The position numbers and the translations under genes were made by a program. From positions 130,969-194,968 of the forward strand of contig OZ253489.1 of NCBI GenBank assembly GCA_965261965.1: 64,000 nt of DNA, written 5' to 3'. This document shows positions 1,900-62,975 of the stretch, in pieces (positions within the stretch are counted from its first letter, which is position 1; the number at the start of each line of letters is the position of its first letter). The notes below the pieces were generated by a model. It was not told the DNA's origin and did no database searches. It saw only the letters and a program-made list of their open reading frames with translations. Source of the DNA: Dehalococcoidia bacterium (GTDB lineage: Bacteria; Chloroflexota; Dehalococcoidia; Lucifugimonadales; JAGWBF01).

Positions 1900-3330
1900 A
1901 TTTCGGGTCCTGGCAAGATCATCGGCCATCCGACGCCCCTGCCGTCATTGCCATGAAAATAGGCAGTGCCGGTGGGGGTCGCGCTCCCCAGAATGACAGG
2001 AGGCGCGCGCTCCTCAGAACGACACCAATAAAGTGTCATTCCGAACGTCCCCTTGTCATTCCGAGCGCCCCCTGTCATTCCGAACGGAGTGAGGAATCTA
2101 AGATCTGGCTCTGACGCCATGTCCATTACTACGACGAGGCTTCGTGTGAGCAGGCATCTTAGATTCTTCGGCGTGCGCGCCTCAGAATGACAGGAAGGGC
2201 ACTCTCCTCATAATGACAGGAGGGAGGCACTCCGAACGCCACGAACCAAGTGTCGTTCCGAACGCCCCCCCGTCATTCCGAATGCCCCCCTGTCATTCCG
2301 AACGGAGTGAGGAATCTAAGATCTGGCTCTGACGCCATGTCCATTACTACGACGAGGCTTCGTGTGAATAGGCATCTTAGATTCTTCGTCGTGCGCGCCT
2401 CAGAATGACAGGAGGGGTGCGCTCCTCAGAACGACAACGATGGGGTGTGTCTCAGAACGACATTATCATAGAGGCATTCCGAACGCGCCCCCTTGTCATT
2501 CCGAACGGAGTGAGGAATCTAAGATCTGGCTCTGACGCCATGTCCATTACTGCGACGAGGCTTCGTGTGAGCGGGCACCTTAGATTCTTCGTCGTGCGCT
2601 CCTCAGAATGACAGGAGGGGGAGGCACTCCGAACGCCACGAACAAAGTGTCATTCCGAACGCCCCCCTGTCATTCCGAACGGAGTGAGGAACCTGAGATC
2701 TGGCTCTGACGCCATGTCCATTACTACGACGAGGCTTCGTGTGAGCGGGCACCTTAGATTCTTCGTCGTGCGCTCCTCAGAATGACAGGAGGGGGAGGCA
2801 CTCCGAACGCCACGAACAAAGTGTCATTCCGAACGCCCCCCTGTCATTCCGAACGGAGTGAGGAATCTGAGATCTGGCTCTGACGCCATGTCCATTACTA
2901 CGACGAGGCTTCGTGTGAGCGGGCACCTTAGATTCTTCGGCGTGCGCGCCTCAGAATGACAGGGGGGGTGCGCTCCTCAGAATGACAATGGATGGCGCGC
3001 TCCTCAGAACGACAACGATGGGGTGTGTGCCTCAGAACTACAAATGGGGGGTGTCTCAGAACGACATTATCATAGAGGCATTCCGAACGTGCCCCCTTGT
3101 CATTCCGAACGGAGTGAGGAATCTAAGATCTGGCTTTGACGCCATGTCCATTACTACGACGAGGCTTCGTGTGAGCGGGCATCTTAGATTCTTCGTCGTG
3201 CGCTCCTCAGAATGACATAAAGAAACTGCCCCTCAGAACGACAGGGAGGGTGGTGTGCCTCAGAATGACAAAGGGGGGCGGGGCGTTCAGAATGACGACT
3301 GTGGGGTGTGCACGTCTTTGCGGGCCGATG
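1900..3330 (+). repeat. Array 1 of the 118-bp GTCATTC...GAATGAC element (family A), six copies plus sub-repeats
   Basis: Six copies of exactly 118 bp: 2074-2191, 2292-2409, 2495-2612, 2669-2786, 2843-2960, 3099-3216. Structure: GTCATTCCGAACGGAGTGAGGAATCTAAGAT-[~50-bp core with TTACTACGACG]-ATCTTAGATTCTTCGTCGTGCGCTCCTCAGAATGAC. Spacers are built from GTCATTCCGAAC.. and ..CTCAGAATGACAG sub-repeats. ORFs called here (2405-2611, 2982-3215) are repeat artefacts. Confidence 0.85.
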
Positions 3331-7109: not shown

Positions 7110-7596
7110 ACACACCGTACCGGATCGCAGGCATCAACATCATCAGGGCACCCGGAAGTCCTTCGCCACCGGGGCCGCTGGAAGTCCTTCGACGGTCCGA
7201 GGCGTGCTCCTTAGAATGACGGTGGAAAATGGTCATCCCGCCTTCCCCCAACGTCATTCCGCCTTCCCGCAATGTCATCCCGCCTTCCCGCACTGTCATC
7301 CCGAACCGCATCCTCCACTGTCATTCAGGGGAGAGCCTCCCCCCCCTGTCATTCCGAGGAGCGCACGACGAGGAATCTAAGATGCCCCTCTAGAGGAGGG
7401 TCCGTTGCTTCGAAGAGTCCCCCATGTCGCCGGGATTTTAGATTCCTCACTGCGTTCGGAATGACAGGAGGGGGATTGTCATTCCGAATCCCCCCTTTCA
7501 TTCCGAGGAGTGCCTTCCCCCTCTGTCATTCCGGGGAGCGCCCCCCCCCTGTCATTCCGAGGAGCGCACGACGAGGAATCTGAGATGCCCCTTAAG
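7110..7596 (-). repeat. Family A array 2, part left of the IS1380 insertion
   Basis: One complete 118-bp copy in reverse orientation (7348-7465). The first 46 bp of a second copy (7551-7596) are cut by the IS. GTCATYCCGCC/GTCATTCCG sub-repeats lie at 7200-7340 and 7470-7550. Confidence 0.8.
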
Positions 7597-9314
7597 CCCG
7601 AATCCACCGATGGACAGGGATGGACGGCGTGAGGACAGCGGAAGGGGGTGAGGGAGTTACAGGCGCGATGATCCGGGCTCGAATTTGGGTAGACGGGAGG
7701 TTGGCGGGCGGTCTGCAGGCGCTTTTGGGGGCACCGATGGCGGCCTACAGTGGCTGTGGAGAGCGAGATGGCGGGATAGGACACGGCAAGAGGCGCTCGC
7801 GGACTGGGCTGGCGCGAGTTTGCGGGGACGTTGGGTTGGCTGGCGAGTCAGTGGCGGACGGGCGCCGTCAGGCAGGGAGTGGCAGGGCGCGCAATCGGGC
7901 CAGGGCACGATCGAACTGGGCTTCCCAAGGCCAGCGCTGTGGCAGATGCAGTGTGAGGCGGCGTGCCGAGCGGGTGATCCGTCCGGCCAGGGAGAAGAAC
8001 CGTCGTCTGAGGGTCTTGGTGGTCACGATCTGCTCGCCCAGACCGATGCGCGCTGTCCAGCGGGCGAGGTTGTGGGCCATCACCTGTACCGCCAGCCAGG
8101 CGGCGTTGGCGGCGAAGCGGCCCGAGGGGAGATGGTTCAACCCCACACCGTGCTTGAGGTCTCGGATGGCATTCTCGATCTCGGCGTGGCGGCGATGGTC
8201 GGCCTCCAGTTCGAGCATCTCCCCGTCCCGGTCGGTGATGAAGCCGTGATAGCTGTAGGAGGCGAAGAGGGCCAGCTGGGAACCGGGCGTGGGCTTCACA
8301 CGCCGGACGATGAGCCGCACCGGTGCGGCGTCAGGTTCACTCTGGAACGGAGTGCAGGTGGTCTCGGCCACATCGGCGGCGCCGTCCATCCAGTAGGGAA
8401 TGGGAGTCCAGGCATCCTCTGGTATCGCCTCGATGAGATTGCGCAGGCTCTTGTGCTGGCGGATGGTGATGGAGAAGCGGACATCCATCTTGCGGCAGAC
8501 GGATACCACGCCATGAGTGTAGAACCCGCTGTCGGCCCGTAGCGTGAGTCGTCCGTTGGCCCCGGCGTAGCGCACCCGTCCCACCGTCTCCCGCAGGAAG
8601 TGGGCGGCGCCGCGGGCGGTGTTGGCCCGGCCCTCGCGCAGCCGGGACATCAGCACGTCTCCGGTGCCGGCGGCGATGGCCAGCAGCGGGTGGTAGCCCC
8701 GCTTGCCGGTATAGCCGTGGTGGCGGGCGCCCTCCTTGGCCAGTCCGTAGGTCTCGCAGATGGTGGAATCGAGGTCGATGGTGAACGGCGCGTCGCCGGG
8801 TCCGGCACCGGCCTTCCAGACCCGGGCCAGCAACTCGCGGCTCACCCGGTCCAGTTGGCGGACATGGCCCCACCTGAAGCTGCGCAGGAAGGTCCCCAGG
8901 GTGGAGGGCGCCTTAGCCGTGAAACCGAGCACGCGGGCGGTCCCGCCGGCGCGCAGCACATCGGCGTCGTCGATGCAATCTCCGCCGGCTAGGGCGGAGG
9001 CCACCAGGGTCATCATCTTGTCGCCGGTGTTCGCCCGGCCCGGTGCGCCGCCGAGGTCGAGGTCCTTCCGGAGGAGTTGGGGCAGGCCAAGGCGCAGGGC
9101 GAGGGTGGCGGGAAGGATCAGCCCGGCATTGGCCACCAGGCGGTGATCGTCGAAGGCGATTTGGATGCGGTCGGGGTGGTTACGTGGTAGCATCTATCGG
9201 GTGCTCCTTTTCTGGGACCGGTTTTCTGTTACAAAACCATTATCCCAGATTCAGAGGCGCACCCTTTTGTTTCTTCAGCAGGCCTCCTACACGCCGTCCT
9301 TCGGTGGATTAGGG
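7597..9314 (-). mobile_element. IS1380-family insertion sequence, intact copy
   Basis: Terminal inverted repeats: CCCGAATCCACCGATGG at 7597 and the reverse complement of CCTTCGGTGGATTAGGG ending at 9314. TTAAG is present on both flanks (7592-7596, 9315-9319). A single transposase ORF lies inside. Confidence 0.85.
7868..9193 (-). CDS. IS1380-family DDE transposase
   Basis: 441 aa. The N-terminus MLPRNHPDRIQIAFDDHRLVANAGLILPATLALRLGL is typical of IS1380 transposases (recognised from memory). The region looks visibly GC-richer than its surroundings. Confidence 0.9.
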   Translation of the reverse strand: MLPRNHPDRIQIAFDDHRLVANAGLILPATLALRLGLPQLLRKDLDLGGAPGRANTGDKMMTLVASALAGGDCIDDADVLRAGGTARVLGFTAKAPSTLGTFLRSFRWGHVRQLDRVSRELLARVWKAGAGPGDAPFTIDLDSTICETYGLAKEGARHHGYTGKRGYHPLLAIAAGTGDVLMSRLREGRANTARGAAHFLRETVGRVRYAGANGRLTLRADSGFYTHGVVSVCRKMDVRFSITIRQHKSLRNLIEAIPEDAWTPIPYWMDGAADVAETTCTPFQSEPDAAPVRLIVRRVKPTPGSQLALFASYSYHGFITDRDGEMLELEADHRRHAEIENAIRDLKHGVGLNHLPSGRFAANAAWLAVQVMAHNLARWTARIGLGEQIVTTKTLRRRFFSLAGRITRSARRLTLHLPQRWPWEAQFDRALARLRALPLPA

Positions 9315-10470
9315 TTAAGAGGAGAGTCCGTTGCTTCGAAGAGTCCCCCATGTCGCCGGGATTTTAGATTCCTCACTGCGTTCGGAATGACATAAAGGGG
9401 GCTGATCCTCAGAATGACGGTGGAGAATGGTCATCCCGCCTTCCCCCATTGCCATTCCCCATTCCCCCCTGTCATTCCCGGGAGCGCCTCCCCCCCTGTC
9501 ATTCCGAGGAGCGCCTTCCCCCCCTGTCATTCCGAGGAGCGCACGACGAGGAATCTGAGATGCCTCCTTAAGAGGAGAGTCCGTTGCTTCGAAGAGTCCC
9601 CCATGTCGCCGGGATTTTAGATTCCTCACTACGTTCGGAATGACAGGGGGGGAAGGCAGAATGACAGGGGGGAATTGTCATTCCGAGGCCCCACTGTCAT
9701 TCCGAGGGGCGCCCTCCCCCTCTGTCATTCCGAGGAGCGCACGACGAGGAATCTAAGATGCCTCCTTAAGAGGAGAGTCTGTGGCTTCGAAGAGTCCCCT
9801 ATGTCGCCGGGATTTTAGATTCCTCACTGCGTTCGGAATGACAGGGGGGCACTCGGAATGACAATTCCCCCCTGTCATTCTGCCTTCCCCCCCTGTCATT
9901 CCCAGGAGCCCTTCCCCCCCTGTCATTCCGAGGAGCGCCTCCCCCCTGTCATTCCGAGGAGCGCACGACGAGGAATCTGAGATGCCTCCTAAGAGGAGAG
10001 TCCGTTGCTTCGAAGAGTCCCCCATGTCGCCGGGATTTTAGATTCCTCACTGCGTTCGGAATGACAGGGGGGCACTCGGAATGACAATCCCCCCCTGTCA
10101 TTCTGCCTTCCCCCCCTGTCATTCCCAGGAGCCCTTCCCCCCTGTCATTCCGAGGAGCGCACGACGAGGAATCTAAGATGCCCCTTAAGAGGAGAGTCCG
10201 TTGCTTCGAAGAGTCCCCCATGTCGCCGGGATTTTAGATTCCTCACTGCGTTCGGAATGACAGTGGAGGGGTTCGGAATGACATAAAGGGGGGTGCTTCT
10301 TAGAATGACATAAAGGGGGGGGCTTCTTAGAATGACACAAAGGGAGGGGCTTCTTAGAATGACACAAAGGGAGGGGCTTCTTAGAATGACAATAGTTGGA
10401 GGGGTTCGGAATGACGGTGGGAGAGGGCCCGCGGCGTGACGGTAAGGAAGAGAGGGGGGCCGCAGCATGA
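9315..10470 (-). repeat. Family A array 2, part right of the IS1380 insertion
   Basis: Remainder of the interrupted copy (9320-9391), then copies at 9526-9644, 9724-9842, 9948-10065 and 10144-10261, all in reverse orientation. About five 30-bp CTTCTTAGAATGACA-type sub-repeats follow at 10262-10420. Confidence 0.85.
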
Positions 10471-21129: not shown

Positions 21130-21945
21130 ATCCCGAACGCCGGCTTATCACGCCGAGCCGCCCACTGTAATTCCGAACCCCCTACTGTCATTCCGAACCG
21201 CAGTGAGGAATCTAAAATGCCCCGACCAAAGCCTCGTCCAATACTACGATAAGCCATAGGGTGAGCAGGCATCTTAGATTCTTCGTCGTGCGCTCCTCAG
21301 AATGACAGTGAAGGGGCGCACTCCTCAGAACGACAGTGAAGGGGCGCACTCCTCAGAATGACAGTGAGGAGGGTGCTCCTCAGAATGACAGTGGGGGGCG
21401 CGCTCCTCAGAATGACAGTGAGGAGGGTGCTCCTCAGAATGACAGTGGGGGGCGCACTCCTCAGAATGACAGTGAAGGGGCGCGCTCCTCAGAATGACAG
21501 TGAGGAGGGTGCTCCTCAGAATGACAGTGAAGGAGGGTGCTCCTCAGAATGACGATAAGGGGGCGCTACTCAGAATGAGAATAAGGGGAGGCGCCAGCTG
21601 TAATTCCGAACCCTCCCCCTGTCATTCCGAACCGCAGTGAGGAATCTAAGATGCCCCGACCGAAGCCTAGTCCATTTCTACGACGAACCATAGGGTGAGC
21701 CAGCATCTTAGATTCTTCGTCGTGCGCTCCTCAGAATGACAGTGAGGGGGGCGCGCTCCTCAGAATGACAATAAGGGGAGGCGCCAGCTGTGATTCCGAA
21801 CCCTCTCCCTGTCATTCCGAACCGCAGTGAGGAATCTAATATGCCCCGACCAAAGCCTCGTCCAATACTACGATGAGCCGTCGGGTGAGCAGGCATCTTA
21901 GATTCTTCGTCGTGCGCTCCTCAGAATGACATGGAGGGGAGGGCG
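21130..21945 (+). repeat. Family A array 3
   Basis: Three 120-bp copies (21187-21306, 21621-21740, 21811-21930) and about ten ~31-bp CTCCTCAGAATGACAGTGARGRGGGYGC sub-repeats (21296-21600). Confidence 0.85.
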
Positions 21946-29390: not shown

Positions 29391-30986
29391 GAGTTTGTCT
29401 CATAGACCGGTGGGCGGGTTGAGTAACACAGGTGTGGGAGCGATGCGCCTCAACAGAGGTTGGCCCGTCCAGTTGCACCGGCCACTTGTCGGCCCCCAGA
29501 AAGGTCGTCTACTCTCTTAGTTCCATGGCGCCTTGACCCAGTCCCAAGGCGCTTGGCCGCTGCGCCATAGCTTGAGCAAGTTATGGGTCGTCCCTGCCAG
29601 CGACCACTCACTCTGTGCAGCGCCCAACCCCCGTCTCATAAACCGTCGGAACCCCTGGCCTTCCTTGACCTGTCCGAACACCGGCTCCACCAGTACACCC
29701 CGCTTCTTGTACAGAGCTCGGCCTCGCTTTGTCAGCAGCTTGCGCTCCATCCTGTCCCTCGGGCTCAGTCCTTTTGGTATACGCCCTCGGGGACACCCCT
29801 TCTCCCATAGCAGCTTCCGCTGTTTCCAATCCTTGGTGGTGGCAATAAGAAGCTCAGGCATCTCTGGCCAGGGGCAAGCCCTGATGTTGGCCTCACTCCA
29901 GTACCCGGCATCGGCCAAGCCCGCTTTGGGCCGGTCCTCTATGCCGGCTGCTTCCAGAGTATGCGCCATGGTTTGGAGCATCGGCTCCAGTTGCTGCACA
30001 TCGTTGGCCTCTTGGGTCACTCCAACGGCTACTATGATCTGCTCCTCGCTCACCACCGCCTGGGCATTGTAGCCCTGCACGTACCCTTGCCTGGTCTTCA
30101 TGATACGACTGTCCGGGTCGGTGGTATTAGCCTTCGCCCCTTCGGTAGGAAGTGGCTCTACCACCTTGGGCTTTCGCCCTCGCTTCTTTTTGCCTGTGAC
30201 ATCTTCTTCTGCCCGCCGTCGCTCCACGTGCTCTTGGACAGCCTTGGCTCCTGCTTCAGCCTCCCGCTGCAGACGTTCCTTGGCTTCCTTCAGGCGCTTG
30301 AGCCGCTCCGTCCGTCCCCCTAGCCCTTCCGGTAGCTCATCCCCTCGCCGGTCGGGACCATAATGGGCATCCTCTTCAGCATCCGTTGCCTTGGCCTCTG
30401 CCAACATGCGCCGCACTTCTTCTTCAATGGCCTGGTGGCTCCGGTTGGTGGCCAGGGCCGCGTTGGCTGCCACCTTCGTCCCATCAAGAGCCACTACCCC
30501 CAACTTCACCAGACCCGCTTCATGGCATAACCTCAGTACCTCTACAAAGAGCTCCTCGAACGCCTCCTCGCGCTCCGCCCTAAAGCGACAGATGGTACGG
30601 AAGTCTGGCTGCCGGTTGGCCGCCACCACCCGGAATCCTACATCTTCCTCCAGAGCACGGGCTATGCGCCTGGAACTGCGTACACCCAGGCAGTAGCCGT
30701 ACAACAGGATGGCCACCATCATCCCCGGATCGTAGGCCGCTGCACCCCATCCATCACTTCGATAGACTGCATAGAACTCCCTCAGATCCATCTGGCCTAC
30801 TGCATCTACAATGAACCAAGCCAAGTGACCCTCACTCAGCCAATCCCTCATGGACGGCGGCATCAAGTAGCTCTGGTCTCGCTCGCAACTCAGAAGGTTA
30901 TAAGCCATAGTGTCCTACCTGCCTGATGTTTCTATGAGCTTACTGCTTCGCCAACCCCGCAGGAAGGGGGTTTATGGGACACGCTC
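29391..30986 (-). mobile_element. IS1182/IS5-like insertion sequence, copy 1 (1596 bp)
   Basis: Imperfect terminal inverted repeats GAGTTTGTCTCATAGACC (left end) and GAGCGTGTCCCATAAACC (reverse complement of the right end). A 4-bp direct repeat CCAT lies on both flanks (29387-29390, 30987-30990). Confidence 0.85.
29517..30908 (-). CDS. IS1182/IS5-family DDE transposase
   Basis: 463 aa. N-terminal DUF772-like region (YDPGMMVAILLYGYCLGVRSSRRI), a central charged coiled segment and a C-terminal DDE region. The family name is from memory. Confidence 0.88.
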   Translation of the reverse strand: MAYNLLSCERDQSYLMPPSMRDWLSEGHLAWFIVDAVGQMDLREFYAVYRSDGWGAAAYDPGMMVAILLYGYCLGVRSSRRIARALEEDVGFRVVAANRQPDFRTICRFRAEREEAFEELFVEVLRLCHEAGLVKLGVVALDGTKVAANAALATNRSHQAIEEEVRRMLAEAKATDAEEDAHYGPDRRGDELPEGLGGRTERLKRLKEAKERLQREAEAGAKAVQEHVERRRAEEDVTGKKKRGRKPKVVEPLPTEGAKANTTDPDSRIMKTRQGYVQGYNAQAVVSEEQIIVAVGVTQEANDVQQLEPMLQTMAHTLEAAGIEDRPKAGLADAGYWSEANIRACPWPEMPELLIATTKDWKQRKLLWEKGCPRGRIPKGLSPRDRMERKLLTKRGRALYKKRGVLVEPVFGQVKEGQGFRRFMRRGLGAAQSEWSLAGTTHNLLKLWRSGQAPWDWVKAPWN

Positions 30987-31095: not shown

Positions 31096-32406
31096 GTGAT
31101 GACCAGTATCCACAAAACAGCAGCTTTCATGATGTTGGCGTTGGCGGGGGCTATGGGTGTGGTTGCTGTAGCATCTGTGGTCGGGTGCGGGACAAACAGC
31201 CGTGGCCCAGATGCTGAGGTGGCGCCTCAAGTAGAACCTGTCGAAACCCGTGGGCTGACACCGGAGGACACCCCGCCAGCCCATGAGGCGACCCCAACCT
31301 TGGGCCGGTTTGCGCCACTGGTCGATCCAGACCCCAACTACCAAGATGCGTTGGATAATGCCCAGTTCCATGACGGTTTCTGGACCCTCACGGATTTCAG
31401 CAGGCATACGGTTCCTTTGCGAGAGATCATGTCAGGCGGCCCGCCTCCTGATGGCATCCCAGCCATCAACGATCCCCAGTTCGTTCCGTTATCTGAAGCT
31501 GACTCTTGGCTGCGAAATGAAGAGCCAGTAGTTGCTATCGAAATCGAAGGTGATGCCAGAGCTTATCCTCTGCAGATACTGATCTATCATGAGATCGTCA
31601 ACGATGTTGTGGGCGGCGTTCCGGTGATGATAACCTTCTGCCCCCTGTGCAACTCAGCTGTCATGTTCGAACGGACCGTGGATGGCGAGGTGCTCAGCTT
31701 CGGGACCACTGGGAACCTGCGAAACAGCGACCTGATAATGTATGACCGCCAGACCCAGTCTTGGTGGCAGCAGATCACCGGCGAAGGGATCGTCGGCCTG
31801 ATGGCCGGCCGCCAGCTGACCTTCCTGCCTGCCTCCATCATTTCTTGGCCGGACTTCAAGGCTGCCTACCCAGATGGAAAGGTGTTGTCGAAAGACACCG
31901 GGTACCGGCGGGACTATGGCATCAACCCCTACCGCGGATACGATAAAGCTGATAAACCTCCCATCTTCTTCGATGGTGTAGTCGACGGCCGCTTGCCTCC
32001 CAAGGAGCGAATTGTTGCGGTGACGCTGAATGATGTCGATGTAGCATTTCCGTTCACCATCTTGAAGGAAGAAAGGGTGGTGACCTACCGAGTAGGCCAA
32101 CGTGACATGGTGGTGTTCTTCCAGGATGGCGCCCAATCAGCTTTGGATTCGGAGCTATTCGGATTCTCCAAGGATGTGGGCTCTACGGGAGTGTTCGATC
32201 CGGTTCTGGAAGGTAGGGAGCTTGGTTTCAGCTATTCGGACGGGCGAATTATCGACGACCAGACGGGCAGCGCCTGGAACATCTTGGGACATGCTGTGGC
32301 TGGAGAGCTCGTCGGCAAAATGCTGACCCAGATCATTCATGGCAACCACTTCTGGTTCGCATGGGCTGCTTTCAAACCCTCAACGATAATCTATCCAGGC
32401 AGATGA
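31096..32406 (+). CDS. DUF3179 domain protein, secreted
   Basis: 436 aa. N-terminal signal/lipobox-like segment (VASVVGCG). PPDGIPAINDPQF and YHEIVND motifs typical of DUF3179. Confidence 0.8.
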   Translation: MMTSIHKTAAFMMLALAGAMGVVAVASVVGCGTNSRGPDAEVAPQVEPVETRGLTPEDTPPAHEATPTLGRFAPLVDPDPNYQDALDNAQFHDGFWTLTDFSRHTVPLREIMSGGPPPDGIPAINDPQFVPLSEADSWLRNEEPVVAIEIEGDARAYPLQILIYHEIVNDVVGGVPVMITFCPLCNSAVMFERTVDGEVLSFGTTGNLRNSDLIMYDRQTQSWWQQITGEGIVGLMAGRQLTFLPASIISWPDFKAAYPDGKVLSKDTGYRRDYGINPYRGYDKADKPPIFFDGVVDGRLPPKERIVAVTLNDVDVAFPFTILKEERVVTYRVGQRDMVVFFQDGAQSALDSELFGFSKDVGSTGVFDPVLEGRELGFSYSDGRIIDDQTGSAWNILGHAVAGELVGKMLTQIIHGNHFWFAWAAFKPSTIIYPGR

Positions 32407-32439: not shown

Positions 32440-33860
32440 CAGTCATCCTCCATAAACTAAATCTCGAGCGCCTCCCCCCTCCGTCATCCCGCCCTCCCTC
32501 CCCCCCGTCATCCCGCCCGCCCTCCCCCCCGTCATCCCGCCCGCCCTCCTCACTGTCATTCCGAACGCCCTCCTCACTGTCATTCCGAACCTCCCCCGCT
32601 GTCATTCCGAACCGCAGCGAGGAATCTAAAATCCCGGCGACCCACAATGGCCCGTCATAGTAACCAACCAGACATCAGAGCGGCATCTTAGATTCCTCGT
32701 CGTGCGCTCCTCGGAATGACATAAAGAAACTGCTCCTCAGAATGACAATAAAGGAAGGCGCCCCTCAGGACGACAACAAAAGAAGGGCGCTCTTCGGAAT
32801 GACAGTGAGGGATCTCGCCCTCCTTATCGTCATCCCCATTCCGAGGAGTGCCTCCCCCGCTGTCATTCCGAACCGCGGTGAGGAATCTAAAATCCCGGCG
32901 ACCCACAATGGCCCGTCGTAGTAACCAACCAGACATCAGAGCGGCATCTTAGATTCCTCGTCGTGCGCTCCTCGGAATGACAGTAAGGGAGGCGCCCCTC
33001 AGAATGACAGGGCGGAGGCACTCCTCGGAATGACAGTGCAGGAAGGGCGCTCCTCGGAATGACAGTGCAGGAAGGGCGCTCCTCGGAATGACAGTGAGGG
33101 AGGCGCTCCTCGGAATGACAGTGCGGGGAGCTCGCCCTCCTTATCGTCATCCCCATTCCGAGGAGTGCCTCCGCCCTGTCATTCCGAACCTCCCCCGCCG
33201 TCATTCCGAACGGACTCTCTGTCCGTCCGACCCTCCCCTCGCTGTCATTCCGAACCGCGGTGAGGAATCTAAAATCCCGGCGACCCACAATGGCCCGTCG
33301 TAGTAACCAACCAGACATCAAAGCGGCATCTTAGATTCCTCGTCGTGCGCTCCTCGGAATGACATAAAGAAGGTGCTCCGCGGAATGACAGTGAGGGAGG
33401 CGCTCCTCGGAATGACAGTGCAGGGAGGCGCTCGTCGGAATGACAGTGAGGGGAGGCGCTCCTCGGAATGACAGCGAGGGGAGGTGCTCCTCGGAATGAC
33501 AGTGAGGGGAGGCGCTCCTCGGAATGACAGTGCAGGAACGGCACTCCTCGGAATGACAGCGAGGGAGCTCGCCCTCCTTATCGTCATCCCCATTCCGAGG
33601 AGCGCCTCTCCCAATGTCATTCCGAACCTCCCCCCTGTCATTCCGAACGGGCCCCCGTCATTCCGAACCTTCCCCGCTGTCATTCCGAACCGCAGTGAGG
33701 AATCTAAAATCTCCCTCCGATGGCCTGCCCGTTACTACGACGGTCCTTCAGGTGAGCCAGCAGCTTAGATTCCTTGTCGTGCGCGCCTCAGAATGACAGT
33801 AAAGGGAAGGCGGTCCGCAGAATGACGGTGATGGGAGGCACCCCGGAGGATAAAGATAAG
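32440..33860 (+). repeat. Family A array 4
   Basis: Copies at 32601-32720, 32862-32981 and 33244-33363 (core inverted relative to array 1) and at 33679-33797 (core as in array 1). About eight ~31-bp CTCCTCGGAATGACAG sub-repeats lie at 33340-33570. Confidence 0.85.
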
Positions 33861-34013: not shown

Positions 34014-35006
34014 ATGCCTGATACAAAATTTGGAATTCTAATAGGTGGCACATGGCCCCAAGGACTACCGTCGGGCAATGAGCTTATGGATTTTGTCCGC
34101 GGGGCTGAAGCTGCGGGCTACGATTCTATCCACACCAGCGATCATATCGCCAGCCCGCCCGAAGGGTTGGCCCCGTCGATCAATGCTTTCCCCTTCTTGG
34201 CCGCCTCCGCCGCAATTACCAAGAAGGTCAAACTGGGTCTCTATCCCGTGGCAATGCCTCTATACAATGCAACCATCGTGGGCAGCTTGATGCTCAGCAT
34301 CCACCACATATCCAACGGTCGTGCTATCTTCTGCACAGCATCCGGTTTCGGATTCCCGGTGGAGTTGGAAGCTGTGGGTGTCGCCTTGCCTGAGCGGCCC
34401 GTCAGAAACACGGAGGGCATGGACTTGGTTTCCAAGCTATGGACCGAAGATAATGTGACCTTCGAAGGGCAGTACAACAAGACCACCAACCTCAACATGA
34501 CCTTGAAGAATGCCGTCCCCAACACCATTCCCACATGGGTGAATGGACGCCACGATTCAGCTTTGCGCCGGGCTGTTAGCGCCGGGGAAGCTTGGGCGGC
34601 GCCGATGGTAACTCCCCAAGAGTTTGCCGAAAAGCGAGCTACCGTTCAGCAATACGCTGAAGAAGCAGGCCGAGACCTCGAGACGGGTTTTGAATGGGTC
34701 GTAGAGGTCGGATTTAACATAAATAACGACCGGAACAAGGCCGCAGCCGAAGCAGAAGGCTCCATTGAGCAGCGACCGGACAAGCAGAGCACCACGGGCC
34801 AAGCTCCCACCGAAGACCTCGTTGGTCAAGCTGCTGCGTTGGGCAGCCCTGAAGAATGCATCAGCAAGGTGCGGGAATATGTCGATGCCGGAGCCAGTTG
34901 GATCGTCGCCACACCGCTGTGCCCCTTGTCAGGCTTTGATGGCCAGATGCACCAGTTCGCTGAAAAGGTAATGTCCAGCTTCAAGGCGGTAAAGGCTACA
35001 GCTTAA
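34014..35006 (+). CDS. LLM-class F420/flavin-dependent oxidoreductase
   Basis: 330 aa. Paralogous in architecture to 18371-19324 and 51994-52941. Confidence 0.85.
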   Translation: MPDTKFGILIGGTWPQGLPSGNELMDFVRGAEAAGYDSIHTSDHIASPPEGLAPSINAFPFLAASAAITKKVKLGLYPVAMPLYNATIVGSLMLSIHHISNGRAIFCTASGFGFPVELEAVGVALPERPVRNTEGMDLVSKLWTEDNVTFEGQYNKTTNLNMTLKNAVPNTIPTWVNGRHDSALRRAVSAGEAWAAPMVTPQEFAEKRATVQQYAEEAGRDLETGFEWVVEVGFNINNDRNKAAAEAEGSIEQRPDKQSTTGQAPTEDLVGQAAALGSPEECISKVREYVDAGASWIVATPLCPLSGFDGQMHQFAEKVMSSFKAVKATA

Positions 35007-49289: not shown

Positions 49290-49483
49290 CCAGCATTGTC
49301 ATACTGAGGAGCGCCTTCCTCCCTCCCCCCCGTCATTCTGAGGCTCCTCCTCCTCCCCTGTCATGCTGAGGCGCGCACGCCTCCCCCCTGTCATTCTGAG
49401 GAGCGCACGCCGAAGAATCTAATATGCCGGCTAACATCATGGCTCGTCGTAGTAATGGGCAGGCCATTGGAGGAGGACCTAAG
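49290..49483 (-). repeat. Family A sub-repeats plus one truncated copy abutting IS1380 copy 2
   Basis: GTCATWCTGAGG sub-repeats at 49296-49390. A copy starts at 49390 (GTCATTCTGAGGAGCGCACGCCGAAGAATCTAATATGCC, core with CGTCGTAGTAA) and ends at the IS boundary. Confidence 0.7.
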
Positions 49484-51200
49484 CCCGAATCCACCGATGG
49501 ACGGGGGGGGGACAGGGGAAGGGGGTAAGGGAGTTACAGGGGCGATGATCCGGGCTCGAATTCGGGTGGACGGGGGGTTGGCGGGCGGTCTGCAGGCGCT
49601 TTGGGGGCAGCGACGTCGGCCTGCGGTGGCTGTGGAGAGCGAGATGGCAGGATAGGCCACGGCAAGAGGCGCTCGCGGACCGGGATGGCGTGAGTTTGGG
49701 GGGCGTTCAGTTGACCGGATGACGGGTCGGTGGCAGAAGGGCGCCGTCAAGCTGGGAGTGGAATGGCTCGCAGCCGGGTCAGGGCGCGACTGAACTGCTC
49801 CTGCCACGGCCAATGCTTGGGAAGATGCAAAGTGAGCCGGGGCGCCGAGCGAGTGAGCCGTCCGGCCAGGGCGAAGACTCGTCGTCTGAGCGTCTTTGTA
49901 GTCGCGATCCGTTCACCCAGGCCGATGCGGGCTGTTGTCCAGCGGGCCAGGTTGTGGGCCATCGCCTGCACCGCCAGCCAGGCGCCGTTGGCGGCGAAGC
50001 GGCCGGACGGCATGTGGCTGAGTCCGACACCGTACTTGAGGTCGCGTATCGCATTTTCGATCTCGGCGCGGCGGCGATGATCAGCCTCCGGTTCGAGCAT
50101 CTCCCCATCGCGGTCGGTGATGAAGCCGTGATGGCTGCAGGTGGCGAAGAGGGCCAACTGGGAACCTGGCGTGGGCTTCACCCGCCGGACGATGAGCCGC
50201 GCCGGCGCGGCATCGGGCTCACTCTGGAAGGGGATATAGGTGGTCTCTGCCACATCGGCGGCGCCGTCCATCCAGCCGTCCATCCAGTGGGGAATCGGCG
50301 TCCAGGCATCTTCAGGTATGGCCTCGATGACATTGTGCAGGCTTTTGTGCTGGCGGATGGCGATGGAGAAGCGGGCATCCATCCTGCGGCAGACGGATGC
50401 CACGCCATGAGCGTAGAAACCGCTGTCGGCCCGCACCGTGATGTCCCCTGGCCCCGGCGTAGCGCACCCGCCCCACCGTCTCAGGCAGGAAGTGGGCGGC
50501 GCCGCGGGCGGTGTTGACGGGGCCCTCGCGCAGCCGGGCCATCAGCACGTCTCCGGCGCTGGCGGCGATAGCCAGCAGTGGGTGATAGCCCCGCTTGCCG
50601 GTGTAACCATGGTGTCGGGCCCCTTCCTTGTCCAGTCCGTAGGTCTCGCAGACGGTGGAATCGAGGTCGATAGTCAAGGGTGCGTCGCCGGGTCCGGCCT
50701 GCCATGCCCGTGCCAGCAGCTCGCGGCTCACCCGGTCCGGTTGGCGGACGTGGCCCCAGCGAAAGCTGCGCAGGAAAGCGCCCAGTGTGGATGGCGCCCT
50801 GACCAGGCAGTCGAGAACACCGGCCGTCCCACCGGCTCGCAGCGCATCGGCGTCGTCGATGCAGTCGCCGCCAGCCAGCGCGGAGGCGACCAGCGTCATT
50901 ATCTTGTCGCCGGTGTTGGCCCGGCCCGGCGCATCACCCAGGTCCAGGCGCTGCTGCACCAGTTGGGAAAGACCGGGGCGCAGGGCCAAGGCGGCTGGGA
51001 GGAGCGGGCCGGCATCGTCCACCAGGCGGTGATCGTCGAAGGCGACTTGGATGCGGTCGAGGTGGTTGCGTGGTAGCATCTATTGGGCGCTCCTTCTCTG
51101 GGGCCGGGTTGCCGTTACAAAACCATTATCCCAGATTCAGAGGAGCGCCCTCTCGCCGCTTTAGAACGCTGACCAGACCCACTCCTTCGGTGGATTCGGG
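49484..51200 (-). mobile_element. IS1380-family insertion sequence, decayed copy
   Basis: It has the same terminal repeats as copy 1 (CCCGAATCCACCGATGG ... CCTTCGGTGGATTCGGG). Flanks are CTAAG and CTAAT. The transposase reading frame is broken. Confidence 0.8.
49747..51079 (-). pseudogene. IS1380-family transposase pseudogene (frameshifted)
   Basis: ORFs 50312-51079 and 49747-50436 together cover the 441-aa protein of copy 1. Relative to copy 1 there is a 2-nt shortfall near 50430-50450 and a 12-nt WMDG duplication. Confidence 0.8.
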
Positions 51201-53695: not shown

Positions 53696-53844
53696 TAGGG
53701 AACCTCTGAACAACTCGGCTGAAGCCCGTCATTCCCGCCCCCTGAAGCCCGTCATTCCCGCGAAGGCGGGAACCTCGCCCCTCTGTAGGGACGGGTTTCA
53801 CGTCCATCCTCTGCATCCAAGGGGACTTATTCAGACTATCCTTA
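53696..53844 (-). mobile_element. Family B MITE, copy X2 (reverse orientation)
   Basis: TA-GGGAACCTCTGAACAAC...CTTATTCAGACTATCCT-TA. Two internal GAATGACGGG sub-repeats. Confidence 0.7.
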
Positions 53845-58403: not shown

Positions 58404-58526
58404 AGATAGTCTGAATAAGTCCCCTTGGATGCGGAGGATGGACGTGAAACCCGTCCCTACGGAGGGGCGAGGTTCCCGCATTCGCGGGAATGACGGGTTT
58501 CAGGCGAGTTGTTCAGAGGTTCCTTA
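58404..58526 (+). mobile_element. Family B MITE, copy X3 (left end slightly truncated)
   Basis: AGATAGTCTGAATAAG...GTTGTTCAGAGGTTCCT-TA. A single internal GAATGACGGG unit. Confidence 0.7.
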
Positions 58527-61379: not shown

Positions 61380-62975
61380 GAGTTTGTCTCATAGACCGGT
61401 GGGCGGGTTGAGTAACACAGGTGTGGGAGCGATGCGCCTCAACAGAGGTTGGCCCGTCCAGTTGCACCGGCCACTTGTCGGCCCCCAGAAAGGTCGTCTA
61501 CTCTCTTAGTTCCATGGCGCCTTGACCCAGTCCCAAGGCGCTTGGCCGCTGCGCCATAGCTTGAGCAAGTTATGGGTCGTCCCTGCCAGCGACCACTCAC
61601 TCTGTGCAGTGCCCAACCCCCGTCTCATAAACCGTCGGAACCCCTGGCCTTCCTTGACCTGTCCGAACACCGGCTCCACCAGTACACCCCGCTTCTTGTA
61701 CAGAGCTCGGCCTCGCTTTGTCAGCAGCTTGCGCTCCATCCTGTCCCTCGGGCTCAGTCCTTTTGGTATACGCCCTCGGGGACACCCCTTCTCCCATAGC
61801 AGCTTCCGCTGTTTCCAATCCTTGGTGGTGGCAATAAGAAGCTCAGGCATCTCTGGCCAGGGGCAAGCCCTGATGTTGGCCTCACTCCAGTACCCGGCAT
61901 CGGCCAAGCCCGCTTTGGGCCGGTCCTCTATGCCGGCTGCTTCCAGAGTATGCGCCATGGTTTGGAGCATCGGCTCCAGTTGCTGCACATCGTTGGCCTC
62001 TTGGGTCACTCCAACGGCTACTATGATCTGCTCCTCGCTCACCACCGCCTGGGCATTGTAGCCCTGCACGTACCCTTGCCTGGTCTTCATGATACGACTG
62101 TCCGGGTCGGTGGTATTAGTCTTCGCCTCTTCGGTAGGAAGTGGCTCTACCACCTTGGGCTTTCGCCCTCGCTTCTTTTTGCCTGTGACATCTTCTTCTG
62201 CCCGCCGTCGCTCCACGTGCTCTTGGACAGCCTTGGCTCCTGCTTCAGCCTCCCGCTGCAGACGTTCCTTGGCTTCCTTCAGGCGCTTGAGCCGCTCCGT
62301 CCGTCCCCCTAGCCCTTCCGGTAGCTCATCCCCTCGCCGGTCGGGACCATAATGGGCATCCTCTTCAGCATCCGTTGCCTTGGCCTCTGCCAACATGCGC
62401 CGCACTTCTTCTTCAATGGCCTGGTGGCTCCGGTTGGTGGCCAGGGCCGCGTTGGCTGCCACCTTCGTCCCATCAAGAGCCACTACCCCCAACTTCACCA
62501 GACCCGCTTCATGGCATAACCTCAGTACCTCTACAAAGAGCTCCTCGAACGCCTCCTCGCGCTCCGCCCTAAAGCGACAGATGGTACGGAAGTCTGGCTG
62601 CCGGTTGGCCGCCACCACCCGGAATCCTACATCTTCCTCCAGAGCACGGGCTATGCGCCTGGAACTGCGTACACCCAGGCAGTAGCCGTACAACAGGATG
62701 GCCACCATCATCCCCGGATCGTAGGCCGCTGCACCCCATCCATCACTTCGATAGACTGCATAGAACTCCCTCAGATCCATCTGGCCTACTGCATCTACAA
62801 TGAACCAAGCCAAGTGACCCTCACTCAGCCAATCCCTCATGGACGGCGGCATCAAGTAGCTCTGGTCTCGCTCGCAACTCAGAAGGTTATAAGCCATAGT
62901 GTCCTACCTGCCTGATGTTTCTATGAGCTTACTGCTTCGCCAACCCCGCAGGAAGGGGGTTTATGGGACACGCTC
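61380..62975 (-). mobile_element. IS1182/IS5-like insertion sequence, copy 2 (1596 bp)
   Basis: Collinear with 29391-30986 over its full length. A 4-bp direct repeat ATAG lies on both flanks (61376-61379, 62976-62979). It sits between proW and the substrate-binding gene. Confidence 0.85.
61506..62897 (-). CDS. IS1182/IS5-family DDE transposase
   Basis: 463 aa. It differs from the 29517-30908 product at three residues in the supplied translations (G/E, A/T, A/T). Confidence 0.88.
   Translation of the reverse strand: MAYNLLSCERDQSYLMPPSMRDWLSEGHLAWFIVDAVGQMDLREFYAVYRSDGWGAAAYDPGMMVAILLYGYCLGVRSSRRIARALEEDVGFRVVAANRQPDFRTICRFRAEREEAFEELFVEVLRLCHEAGLVKLGVVALDGTKVAANAALATNRSHQAIEEEVRRMLAEAKATDAEEDAHYGPDRRGDELPEGLGGRTERLKRLKEAKERLQREAEAGAKAVQEHVERRRAEEDVTGKKKRGRKPKVVEPLPTEEAKTNTTDPDSRIMKTRQGYVQGYNAQAVVSEEQIIVAVGVTQEANDVQQLEPMLQTMAHTLEAAGIEDRPKAGLADAGYWSEANIRACPWPEMPELLIATTKDWKQRKLLWEKGCPRGRIPKGLSPRDRMERKLLTKRGRALYKKRGVLVEPVFGQVKEGQGFRRFMRRGLGTAQSEWSLAGTTHNLLKLWRSGQAPWDWVKAPWN

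Follow-up and report, generated by a model that had tools for sequence, protein, structure and literature searches.

The locus considered here is one intergenic array of repeated elements (array 4, region 32476-33840), bordered by a DUF3179 gene on one side and a luciferase-like monooxygenase gene on the other. It lies in a genome assembled as one contig of 3.43 Mb (C1), of which C1:130969-194968, the whole stretch of 64,000 nucleotides that was analysed, is referred to as the window. The array holds four elements of 119-120 bp, each starting with GTCATTCCGA and finishing with TC(G/A)GAATGAC, and the elements are separated by tandem half-copies of element ends. On the plus strand, the short-loop end lies left and the long-loop end right in all four copies; the short end reads GTCATTCCGA-ACCGC(A/G)G(T/C)-GAGGAATCTAAAAT, and the long end reads A(T/G)CTTAGATTCCT(C/T)-GTCGTGCGC(T/G)CC-TC(G/A)GAATGAC. 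The half-copies are always of the same type as the end that they adjoin, and this is also the case beside the copies whose core is flipped. The coordinates of these features, and of three other arrays in the window, are collected in Table 1.

Table 1. Positions within the window of the array 4 locus, the other arrays and related features.
Feature	Position	Strand	Remarks
Array 1	2074-3216	+	six forward elements
Array 2	7348-10261	-	five intact flipped elements, divergent core type B2
Array 2, intact flipped copies	7348-7465, 9526-9644, 9724-9842, 9948-10065, 10144-10261	-	
Array 2, sixth element	halves about 7551-7600 and 9314-9391		split by insertion sequence
Insertion sequence inside array 2	body about 7600-9313		transposase ORF 7868-9193
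Array 3	21187-21930	+	three forward elements
DUF3179 gene	31096-32406		neighbour of array 4
Tandem half-copies of short-loop end	32476-32612	+	TGTCATTCCGAAC + C-rich tail, period 20-24; lead into copy 1
Array 4 copy 1, flipped	32601-32720	+	short-loop end (ACCGCAGC), inverted core 32633-32684, long-loop end
Array 4 copy 2, flipped	32862-32981	+	core 32894-32945; inner arms 32880-32893 and 32946-32959
Tandem half-copies of long-loop end	32965-33124	+	GCGCTCCTCGGAATGACAG + G-rich tail, period 27-29
Further short-end half-copy tracts, array 4	33178-33243 and 33615-33691		
Array 4 copy 3, flipped	33244-33363	+	core 33276-33327
Second long-end half-copy tract, array 4	33347-33567		
Array 4 copy 4, forward	33679-33797	+	core 33711-33761; long end with T-A stem variant (TCAGAATGAC)
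Luciferase-like monooxygenase gene	34014-35006		neighbour of array 4, other side
Second hairpin family, sites	53750-53777	+	
	58468-58495	-	

Insertion sequences were also observed in the window. A DDE_Tnp_1_4 element (ends CCCGAATCCACCGA…TCGGTGGATTAGGG) splits the core of one array 2 element with a TTAAG target duplication, and an end of the same insertion sequence abuts a truncated forward element in array 5 (49478-49500), after CTAAG; the hairpin-pair repeat may be a preferred target of this insertion sequence. A DUF772/DDE_Tnp_1 insertion sequence is present in two near-identical copies, 29517-30908 and 61506-62897, which agree at 1588 of 1600 bases.

Element architecture and genome-wide census

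The element is 118-120 bp long and consists of a convergent pair of unequal REP/NTS-like hairpins (TGTCATTCCGA…GAGGAATC) around a homologous spacer of about 51 bp, here called the core. Each end, read inward on its own strand, consists of TGTCATTCYGA, an apical mini-hairpin and GARGAATCTAAGAT, with an apex of 7-8 nt at the short end (AC-GNA-GT) and of 11-12 nt at the long end (GGAG-CGCA-CGAC). One end is an inverted copy of the other, and the spacer consequently lies between the arms of an inner inverted repeat of 14-18 nt, with a perfect 11-bp part GAGGAATCTAA/TTAGATTCCTC, and of a perfect outer repeat of about 10-12 bp. The ends are about 99% conserved per position, while 700 distinct cores were counted.

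Base pairing was evaluated on 706 distinct forward copies, in which positions 15:27 and 101:118 form Watson-Crick pairs in 99% of cases. The second of these pairs, 101:118, covaries (T-A in 665, C-G in 31), as does the apex pair 18:24 (A-T in 634, G-C in 57), and pairs 105:114 and 106:113 alternate among G-C/C-G, G-C/A-T and T·C/C·T, the last being tandem G·A on the other strand; the same bases, placed in one long hairpin of the whole element, would instead face each other as C·A (95%) and G·T (94%). Since pair counts and covariation favour separate hairpins, each end appears to fold as a hairpin of its own, and this covariation, taken with the analogy to NTS, indicates that the predicted end hairpins are real. 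Nearest-neighbour folding assigns little stability to the single end hairpins, and lets the whole element fold as one long hairpin at -25 to -31 kcal/mol (z -4 to -5.5).

The short apex (element positions 18-24; 2084-2090 and 32611-32618 in the window) forms a C-GNA-G mini-hairpin with a covarying closing pair and tandem G·A flanks, in the variants ACGGAGT, ACGCAGT, ACGTAGT, GCGGAGC and GCGAAGC. Mini-hairpins of this type and tandem G·A pairs are unusually stable in single-stranded DNA, and these motifs point to a function as DNA, not RNA. RNAalifold detected no conserved pairing inside the core, and a candidate GATGGC/GCCATC stem was rejected as a structured RNA, being only 40-84% paired and showing little covariation. 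The imbalances of G·T and A·C in the arms favoured neither strand. No Rfam model matched the whole window at gathering thresholds, and permissive thresholds on the array returned only plant and animal miRNA-precursor models far below the cut-offs, which we rejected as an artefact of the long hairpin.

Across the genome, 832 elements were counted in 184 arrays, which span at least 199 kb or about 5.8% of the genome; 800 of them pair a short end with a long one, and there are 17 short-short and 2 long-long elements. Elements were oriented from the short to the long end and were called forward when the core aligned with the family consensus CTCCCTCTGATGGCC.GTCCATTACTACGACGAGCCATCG.GTGAGCAGGC, and flipped when it aligned only as the reverse complement. 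By this rule, 737 of the 800 copies are forward and 63 (about 8%, in 20 arrays) are flipped. In 166 of 168 multi-copy arrays all elements share one short-to-long polarity, whereas 11 arrays contain cores of both orientations and seven are purely flipped. Uniform end polarity and matching half-repeats argue that the core was turned, or was imported backwards, and against an exchange of the ends; the uniformity also shows that the ends, and not the core, define the polarity of array growth, the flipped spacers behaving as passive cargo. No bias of array polarity with respect to the replication strand was evident, the GC skew being weak. Loop variants reassort heavily on the tree of cores, with 234 and 215 changes for the two ends, so exchange between copies must be common, yet the type of end on each side of the core is almost never altered.

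Homotypic short-short elements were observed on C1 at 1152909-1153481, 1886534-1887482, 1891850-1893488, 2144709, 2988112 and 3308534, and long-long elements at 2626547 and 2626847. The two loops of some short-short copies complement each other exactly, which is what copying from arm to arm would give.

Inversion of the core and its inheritance

The starting point of this study was the claim that in three copies of array 4 (32601-32720, 32862-32981 and 33244-33363) the core runs in reverse with respect to the asymmetric ends, and our data agree, with the ends keeping their order. The switch of strand that had been noticed for an 11-mer was found again: TTACTACGACG lies on the plus strand in array 1 (2126-3161), in array 3 (21675) and at 33732, and on the minus strand in the three array 4 copies at 32653 (one mismatch), 32914 and 33296. 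With up to one mismatch allowed, the window contains 12 occurrences of it, where 0.26 would be expected. A hand count had given 31 of 50 positions for the reverse match of core 32894-32945 to the array 1 core; our ungapped recount gave 30/51, against 18/51 for direct alignment, which had also been said to be worse. Shuffled controls of the same comparison scored 17.0±2.0 with a maximum of 25, and the reverse value was reached in 0 of 2000. The similarity thus extends across the 51-bp core, and the case in which the 11-mer would be the sole inverted similarity does not apply. The copy at 33679-33797 is in the array 1 orientation, as had been stated, matching at 36/51 positions directly and at 14/51 in reverse. 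Both configurations therefore coexist within array 4, in line with the original prediction, and the same is seen in 11 arrays genome-wide. The five intact copies of array 2, which had been missed, are flipped as well; there the whole element lies on the minus strand and the core lacks the 11-mer.

To follow the orientation through the family, a FastTree phylogeny of all 800 cores, set in core orientation, was built from about 51 alignment columns. The flipped cores fall into five clades, and their configuration requires 7 parsimony changes compared with about 61 when labels are shuffled. Clade B2 (support 86) comprises 28 flipped cores with 5 forward cores inside and includes array 2 of the window, while clade B1 (support 59) comprises 19 flipped with 4 forward inside and includes array 4; each of the two has spread to at least seven arrays. 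Clades B4 (4 flipped, support 83), B3 (8 flipped, support 97, at 571708-574264) and B5 (4 flipped, support 91, at 2899583-2900925) have no forward cores inside. B3 and B5 are independent events, because their cores are 88-90% identical to forward cores and at most 79% identical to other flipped cores; B1, B2 and B4 could stem from one event. As the tree has only about 51 columns, the number of inversion events, 3 to 7, is approximate.

Closely related cores agree in configuration. Among pairs at least 90% identical, 0 of 2,247 were discordant, where about 326 would be expected at random, and among pairs 85-90% identical, 15 of 3,262 were discordant. The few changes on the tree and the lack of discordant close pairs mean that orientation is stably inherited and was changed a handful of times. 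The term 'flip-flop' of the original prediction, if taken in the sense of ongoing switching, is therefore not upheld, with about 7 changes among 800 cores, and an active flip-flop is not supported; its fallback of a historical inversion matches the data. Within array 4 itself, the kinship between forward and flipped cores is distant, so that neither form arose from the other at that locus. An exact protein look-up returned no other assembly of the array 4 locus on record.

The extent of the inverted segment can be read from a polymorphism of the inner arms (G36/T92): one arm reads CTAAGAT and its partner ATTTTAG, or CTAAAAT when read on the opposite strand. This asymmetry follows the core and not the ends in the B2 type, in which forward elements at 1784402, 1784916, 2879247 and 2880492 were compared with about 28 flipped ones, and likewise in B4, compared with its forward relatives at 2847885 and 2849098. 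Loops and outer stems stay in place while the arm polymorphism moves with the core; the crossovers consequently lie inside the 11-bp GAGGAATCTAA/TTAGATTCCTC, and the inverted segment includes element positions 36-92. The segment measures 57-79 bp, and in the copy at 32862-32981 it covers at least 32891-32948. The inverted repeats that had been seen to bracket the core in a geometry fitting inversion are indeed present, the inner repeat being 18 nt with 89% complementarity and 11 bp perfect, and the outer one a perfect 12 bp.

Perfectly complementary arms are found in 57 of 62 flipped copies but in 32 of 734 forward ones, owing to a C-G stem variant of the long end (GATTCCTC…TCGGAATGAC). Several of the 32 are forward relatives of flipped clades, and intermediate C/A and T/G arm states exist. 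Independent contrasts between flipping and perfect arms gave three well-supported cases, about two in the same direction and none opposite; with only three well-supported contrasts, the link cannot reach significance. Had a typical forward element simply been inverted, its long end would still carry the T-A stem, which is missing from nearly all flipped copies; either inversion is confined to perfect-armed elements, or it was followed by further changes. Two readings fit: perfect arms may favour inversion, or a template switch that copied one inner arm from the other may have made the inner arm perfect, a compensating change in the outer arm following. The flipped copies share a scaffold of ends, with a short loop that is mostly ACCGCAGT and a long loop GGAGCGCACGAC with the C-G stem, and their cores come from several lineages.

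Origin of the flipped cores

We consider it likely that the flipped cores are rare, old inversions between the inverted arms of the element, which were then inherited and amplified. In a first step, the spacer and the distal part of the inner arms would have been inverted at least three times, most likely five to seven times, with the crossover inside GAGGAATCTAA/TTAGATTCCTC. The route would have been either a two-step replication template switch at a hairpin or cruciform, akin to the quasi-palindrome template switching of Ripley-type mutation, or recombination between the arms. While the inversion, the interval of its breakpoints, its rarity, its inheritance and its association with perfect arms were shown directly, the route, and the place of perfect arms as cause or as product, are inferred. 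In a second step, the inverted state would have been passed on and amplified with the element, giving the 63 of 800 copies in 20 arrays. At each edge of the inverted segment lies one arm of a single inverted repeat, and the events are rare, recurrent and later inherited (five clades, 7 against about 61 changes), as in hairpin-mediated inversion. This small-inversion polymorphism of the spacer is ordinary in mechanism but well documented in the present genome.

The same product could have come from antiparallel gap repair or gene conversion, in which a perfect-armed element, broken within its spacer, was mended from a reverse-aligned copy by way of the palindromic arms, importing a foreign core backwards. 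The common end scaffold with cores of several lineages, the frequent exchange between copies that loop reassortment reveals (234 and 215 changes), and the fact that flipped cores of mixed arrays are not close kin of their forward neighbours would all suit such repair. On the other hand, B2 and B4 have forward relatives whose scaffold is identical or similar, as in-place inversion predicts, and antiparallel homology would extend for merely 11-14 bp before running into unlike loops. The outcome being identical to that of in-place inversion, the present data do not separate the two, and we regard gap repair as unlikely, with a small but appreciable chance of being right.

A more speculative idea, which we think improbable, is that the association of flipping with perfect arms is a footprint of copying through a single-stranded fold-back, the polymerase sometimes copying arm from arm. 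Such copying would make the arms alike, turn the spacer round and, in the most extreme case, yield short-short palindromic elements. If this were true, the flipped subfamilies would form a natural record of transposase-independent propagation for repeats of the CGTC/NTS class.

It might also be supposed that the core was never inverted and that gene conversion swapped the short-loop and long-loop hairpins instead. Homotypic intermediates do exist (17 short-short, 2 long-long) and hairpin loops are often exchanged, but swapped ends would leave elements of reversed polarity with cores parallel to their neighbours, and the opposite was found, with polarity uniform in 166/168 arrays and cores mixed in 11. 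The flanking half-repeats moreover fit the end types, and homotypic forms are rarer than the flipped forms for which they would be stepping stones, which makes this account quite improbable.

An active invertible switch, in which a site-specific invertase would act on the inner repeats, is suggested by the inverted repeats around the core, and the genome does encode 18 serine recombinases, one of them, at 739202, with a short open frame of 207 aa, together with three IS110-type DEDD enzymes. No link between the recombinases and the arrays was seen, and no serine-recombinase match occurs within the window (C1:130969-194968), where the neighbours of array 4 are the two genes of Table 1. The open frames of most serine recombinases are 430-730 aa long, the configuration is stably inherited with 92% of copies in one state, and one switch acting on 184 dispersed arrays would randomise their orientation; we therefore hold this explanation to be very improbable. 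Parvovirus-style flip and flop through hairpin-primed (rolling-hairpin) copying at each propagation would draw on the folding of the whole element into one long hairpin (-25 to -31 kcal/mol) with small arms in a T- or four-way-junction-like shape, but it predicts roughly equal flip and flop in each generation, against 92:8 (737:63) and 0 of 2,247 close pairs changed, and its unequal side arms would invert with the core, where in fact they stay, so that it is scarcely credible.

The two hairpin ends stand out as the functional, polarity-defining parts of a family of about 830 copies (about 6% of the genome), and the spacer as cargo that works in either orientation. The polarity-defining ends narrow the search for the function of the repeats and for the enzyme that spreads them. 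The flipped spacers reveal no new genetic switch; they do provide a clean natural case, in a bacterial chromosome, of a small inversion mediated by inverted repeats, and the hundreds of imperfect-armed copies that did not flip serve as a built-in control.

Comparison with relatives and known systems

The expansion of the repeats is recent and specific to this lineage. Five congeners, three of them single contigs, were searched and had no hairpins of this type; their genomes are 0.8-1.4 Mb smaller, and the orthologous spacer between the DUF3179 and luciferase genes is a plain stretch of about 200 bp in two of them (G001, L009; G004, L010). It is the lack of hairpins in congeners and the plain orthologous spacer that mark the expansion as lineage-specific. 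Paired hairpins were found in the family members G012, G016 and G013, but their spacers are unrelated and their loops show no short/long dichotomy: G012 has about 10 copies (e.g., C1:23073-23167), all in one configuration, and G016 about 15, and in these two the elements share the GTCATTCCGA…GAGGAATCT ends around unrelated spacers that are shorter or longer. The hairpin pair is the conserved module, and the spacer is specific to each lineage. The relatives were also considered as a guide to the ancestral configuration and were set aside, since with unrelated spacers and no loop dichotomy the change cannot be polarised.

A REPIN consists of two inverted REPs with a spacer, replicating as a unit and carrying the tag GTAG, and REPINs are reportedly mobilised by RAYT, a view associated with Bertels and Rainey. 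The elements described here resemble REPINs in having two inverted REPs and a spacer as the unit, in hundreds of copies, but their tag is TGTC and not GTAG, and a Y1 (RAYT/IS200) transposase is lacking: PF01797 had no match in the genome, where control genomes gave matches.

The element is best classed, from its sequence features, as a REP-like hairpin heterodimer that is probably related to Neisseria NTS and to CGTC/TGTC-tagged REPs. NTS and Ssn-related motifs (SRM) pair with SsnA GIY-YIG ssDNA nucleases (Chenal et al. 2025, PMC11893778), and the element ends share GTCATTCC…GGAATC(Y) letter for letter with NTS, CGTCATTCCCGCGMAVGCGGGAATCYRG (PMC11893778), whereas neither element end fits the published SRM pattern HGTCWYN(0-2)YYVSBRHN(0-5)WNVSBRGN(0-2)RNCYNB. 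That pattern matches 241 other sites in the genome, all belonging to a separate CGTCATTCCCGC family. This second hairpin family, CGTCATTCCCGCGAA(G/T)GCGGGAACCTCG, is near-identical to Neisseria NTS and is the only family in the genome that fits the pattern. A PF01541 match of 49.9 bits identifies a 106-aa, single-domain GIY-YIG ORF (C1:1879815-1880132) inside an element array, between groups of five and four elements; homologues in two relatives (G029 and G025) also adjoin such hairpins. By sequence, this ORF is Ssn-like and encodes a putative nuclease.

The CGTC/TGTC-tagged REPs are palindromic units with a terminal (C/T)GTC tag and a stem that starts with A-T pairs; they form inverted dimers, often heterodimers with unlike loops, with conserved spacers of 20-100 bp whose ends are complementary, and have no RAYT (Di Nocera, De Gregorio & Rocco 2013, PMC3733652); they include Neisseria dRS3 and mosaic intergenic arrays, with stems of 8-9 bp and loops of 4-5 nt (PMC3733652). 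Our elements are alike in the terminal TGTC tag (683 of 706 short ends), in a stem that opens with ATTCC/GGAAT, in the lack of a RAYT, and in forming 800 heterodimers, clustered in intergenic arrays, whose hairpins lie about 65 bp apart. They differ in having five Watson-Crick pairs followed by two tandem G·A pairs and a 2-4-bp apical mini-hairpin, with 11-16 nt between the 5-bp stems and a loop region of 7-12 nt, and in an unusually high copy number and array size. The passages of PMC3733652 consulted here list no dimer feature that concerns how the spacer is oriented relative to its unlike partners.

The closest counterpart of the inversion itself is found in hairpin-associated small inversions, such as the minute inversions of 4-50 bp in chloroplast non-coding DNA (Kelchner & Wendel 1996, as reviewed in PMC12371153). 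Both involve a short segment turned exactly between short inverted repeats capable of forming hairpins (57-79 bp here, 4-50 bp in plastids), and both are rare, recurrent and homoplasious, without a dedicated enzyme; homogenisation of the arms is an expected by-product. Here, by contrast, the inversions lie inside a multicopy bacterial repeat, the arms are halves of two separate, putative protein-recognition hairpins, and each inversion was amplified into a subfamily.
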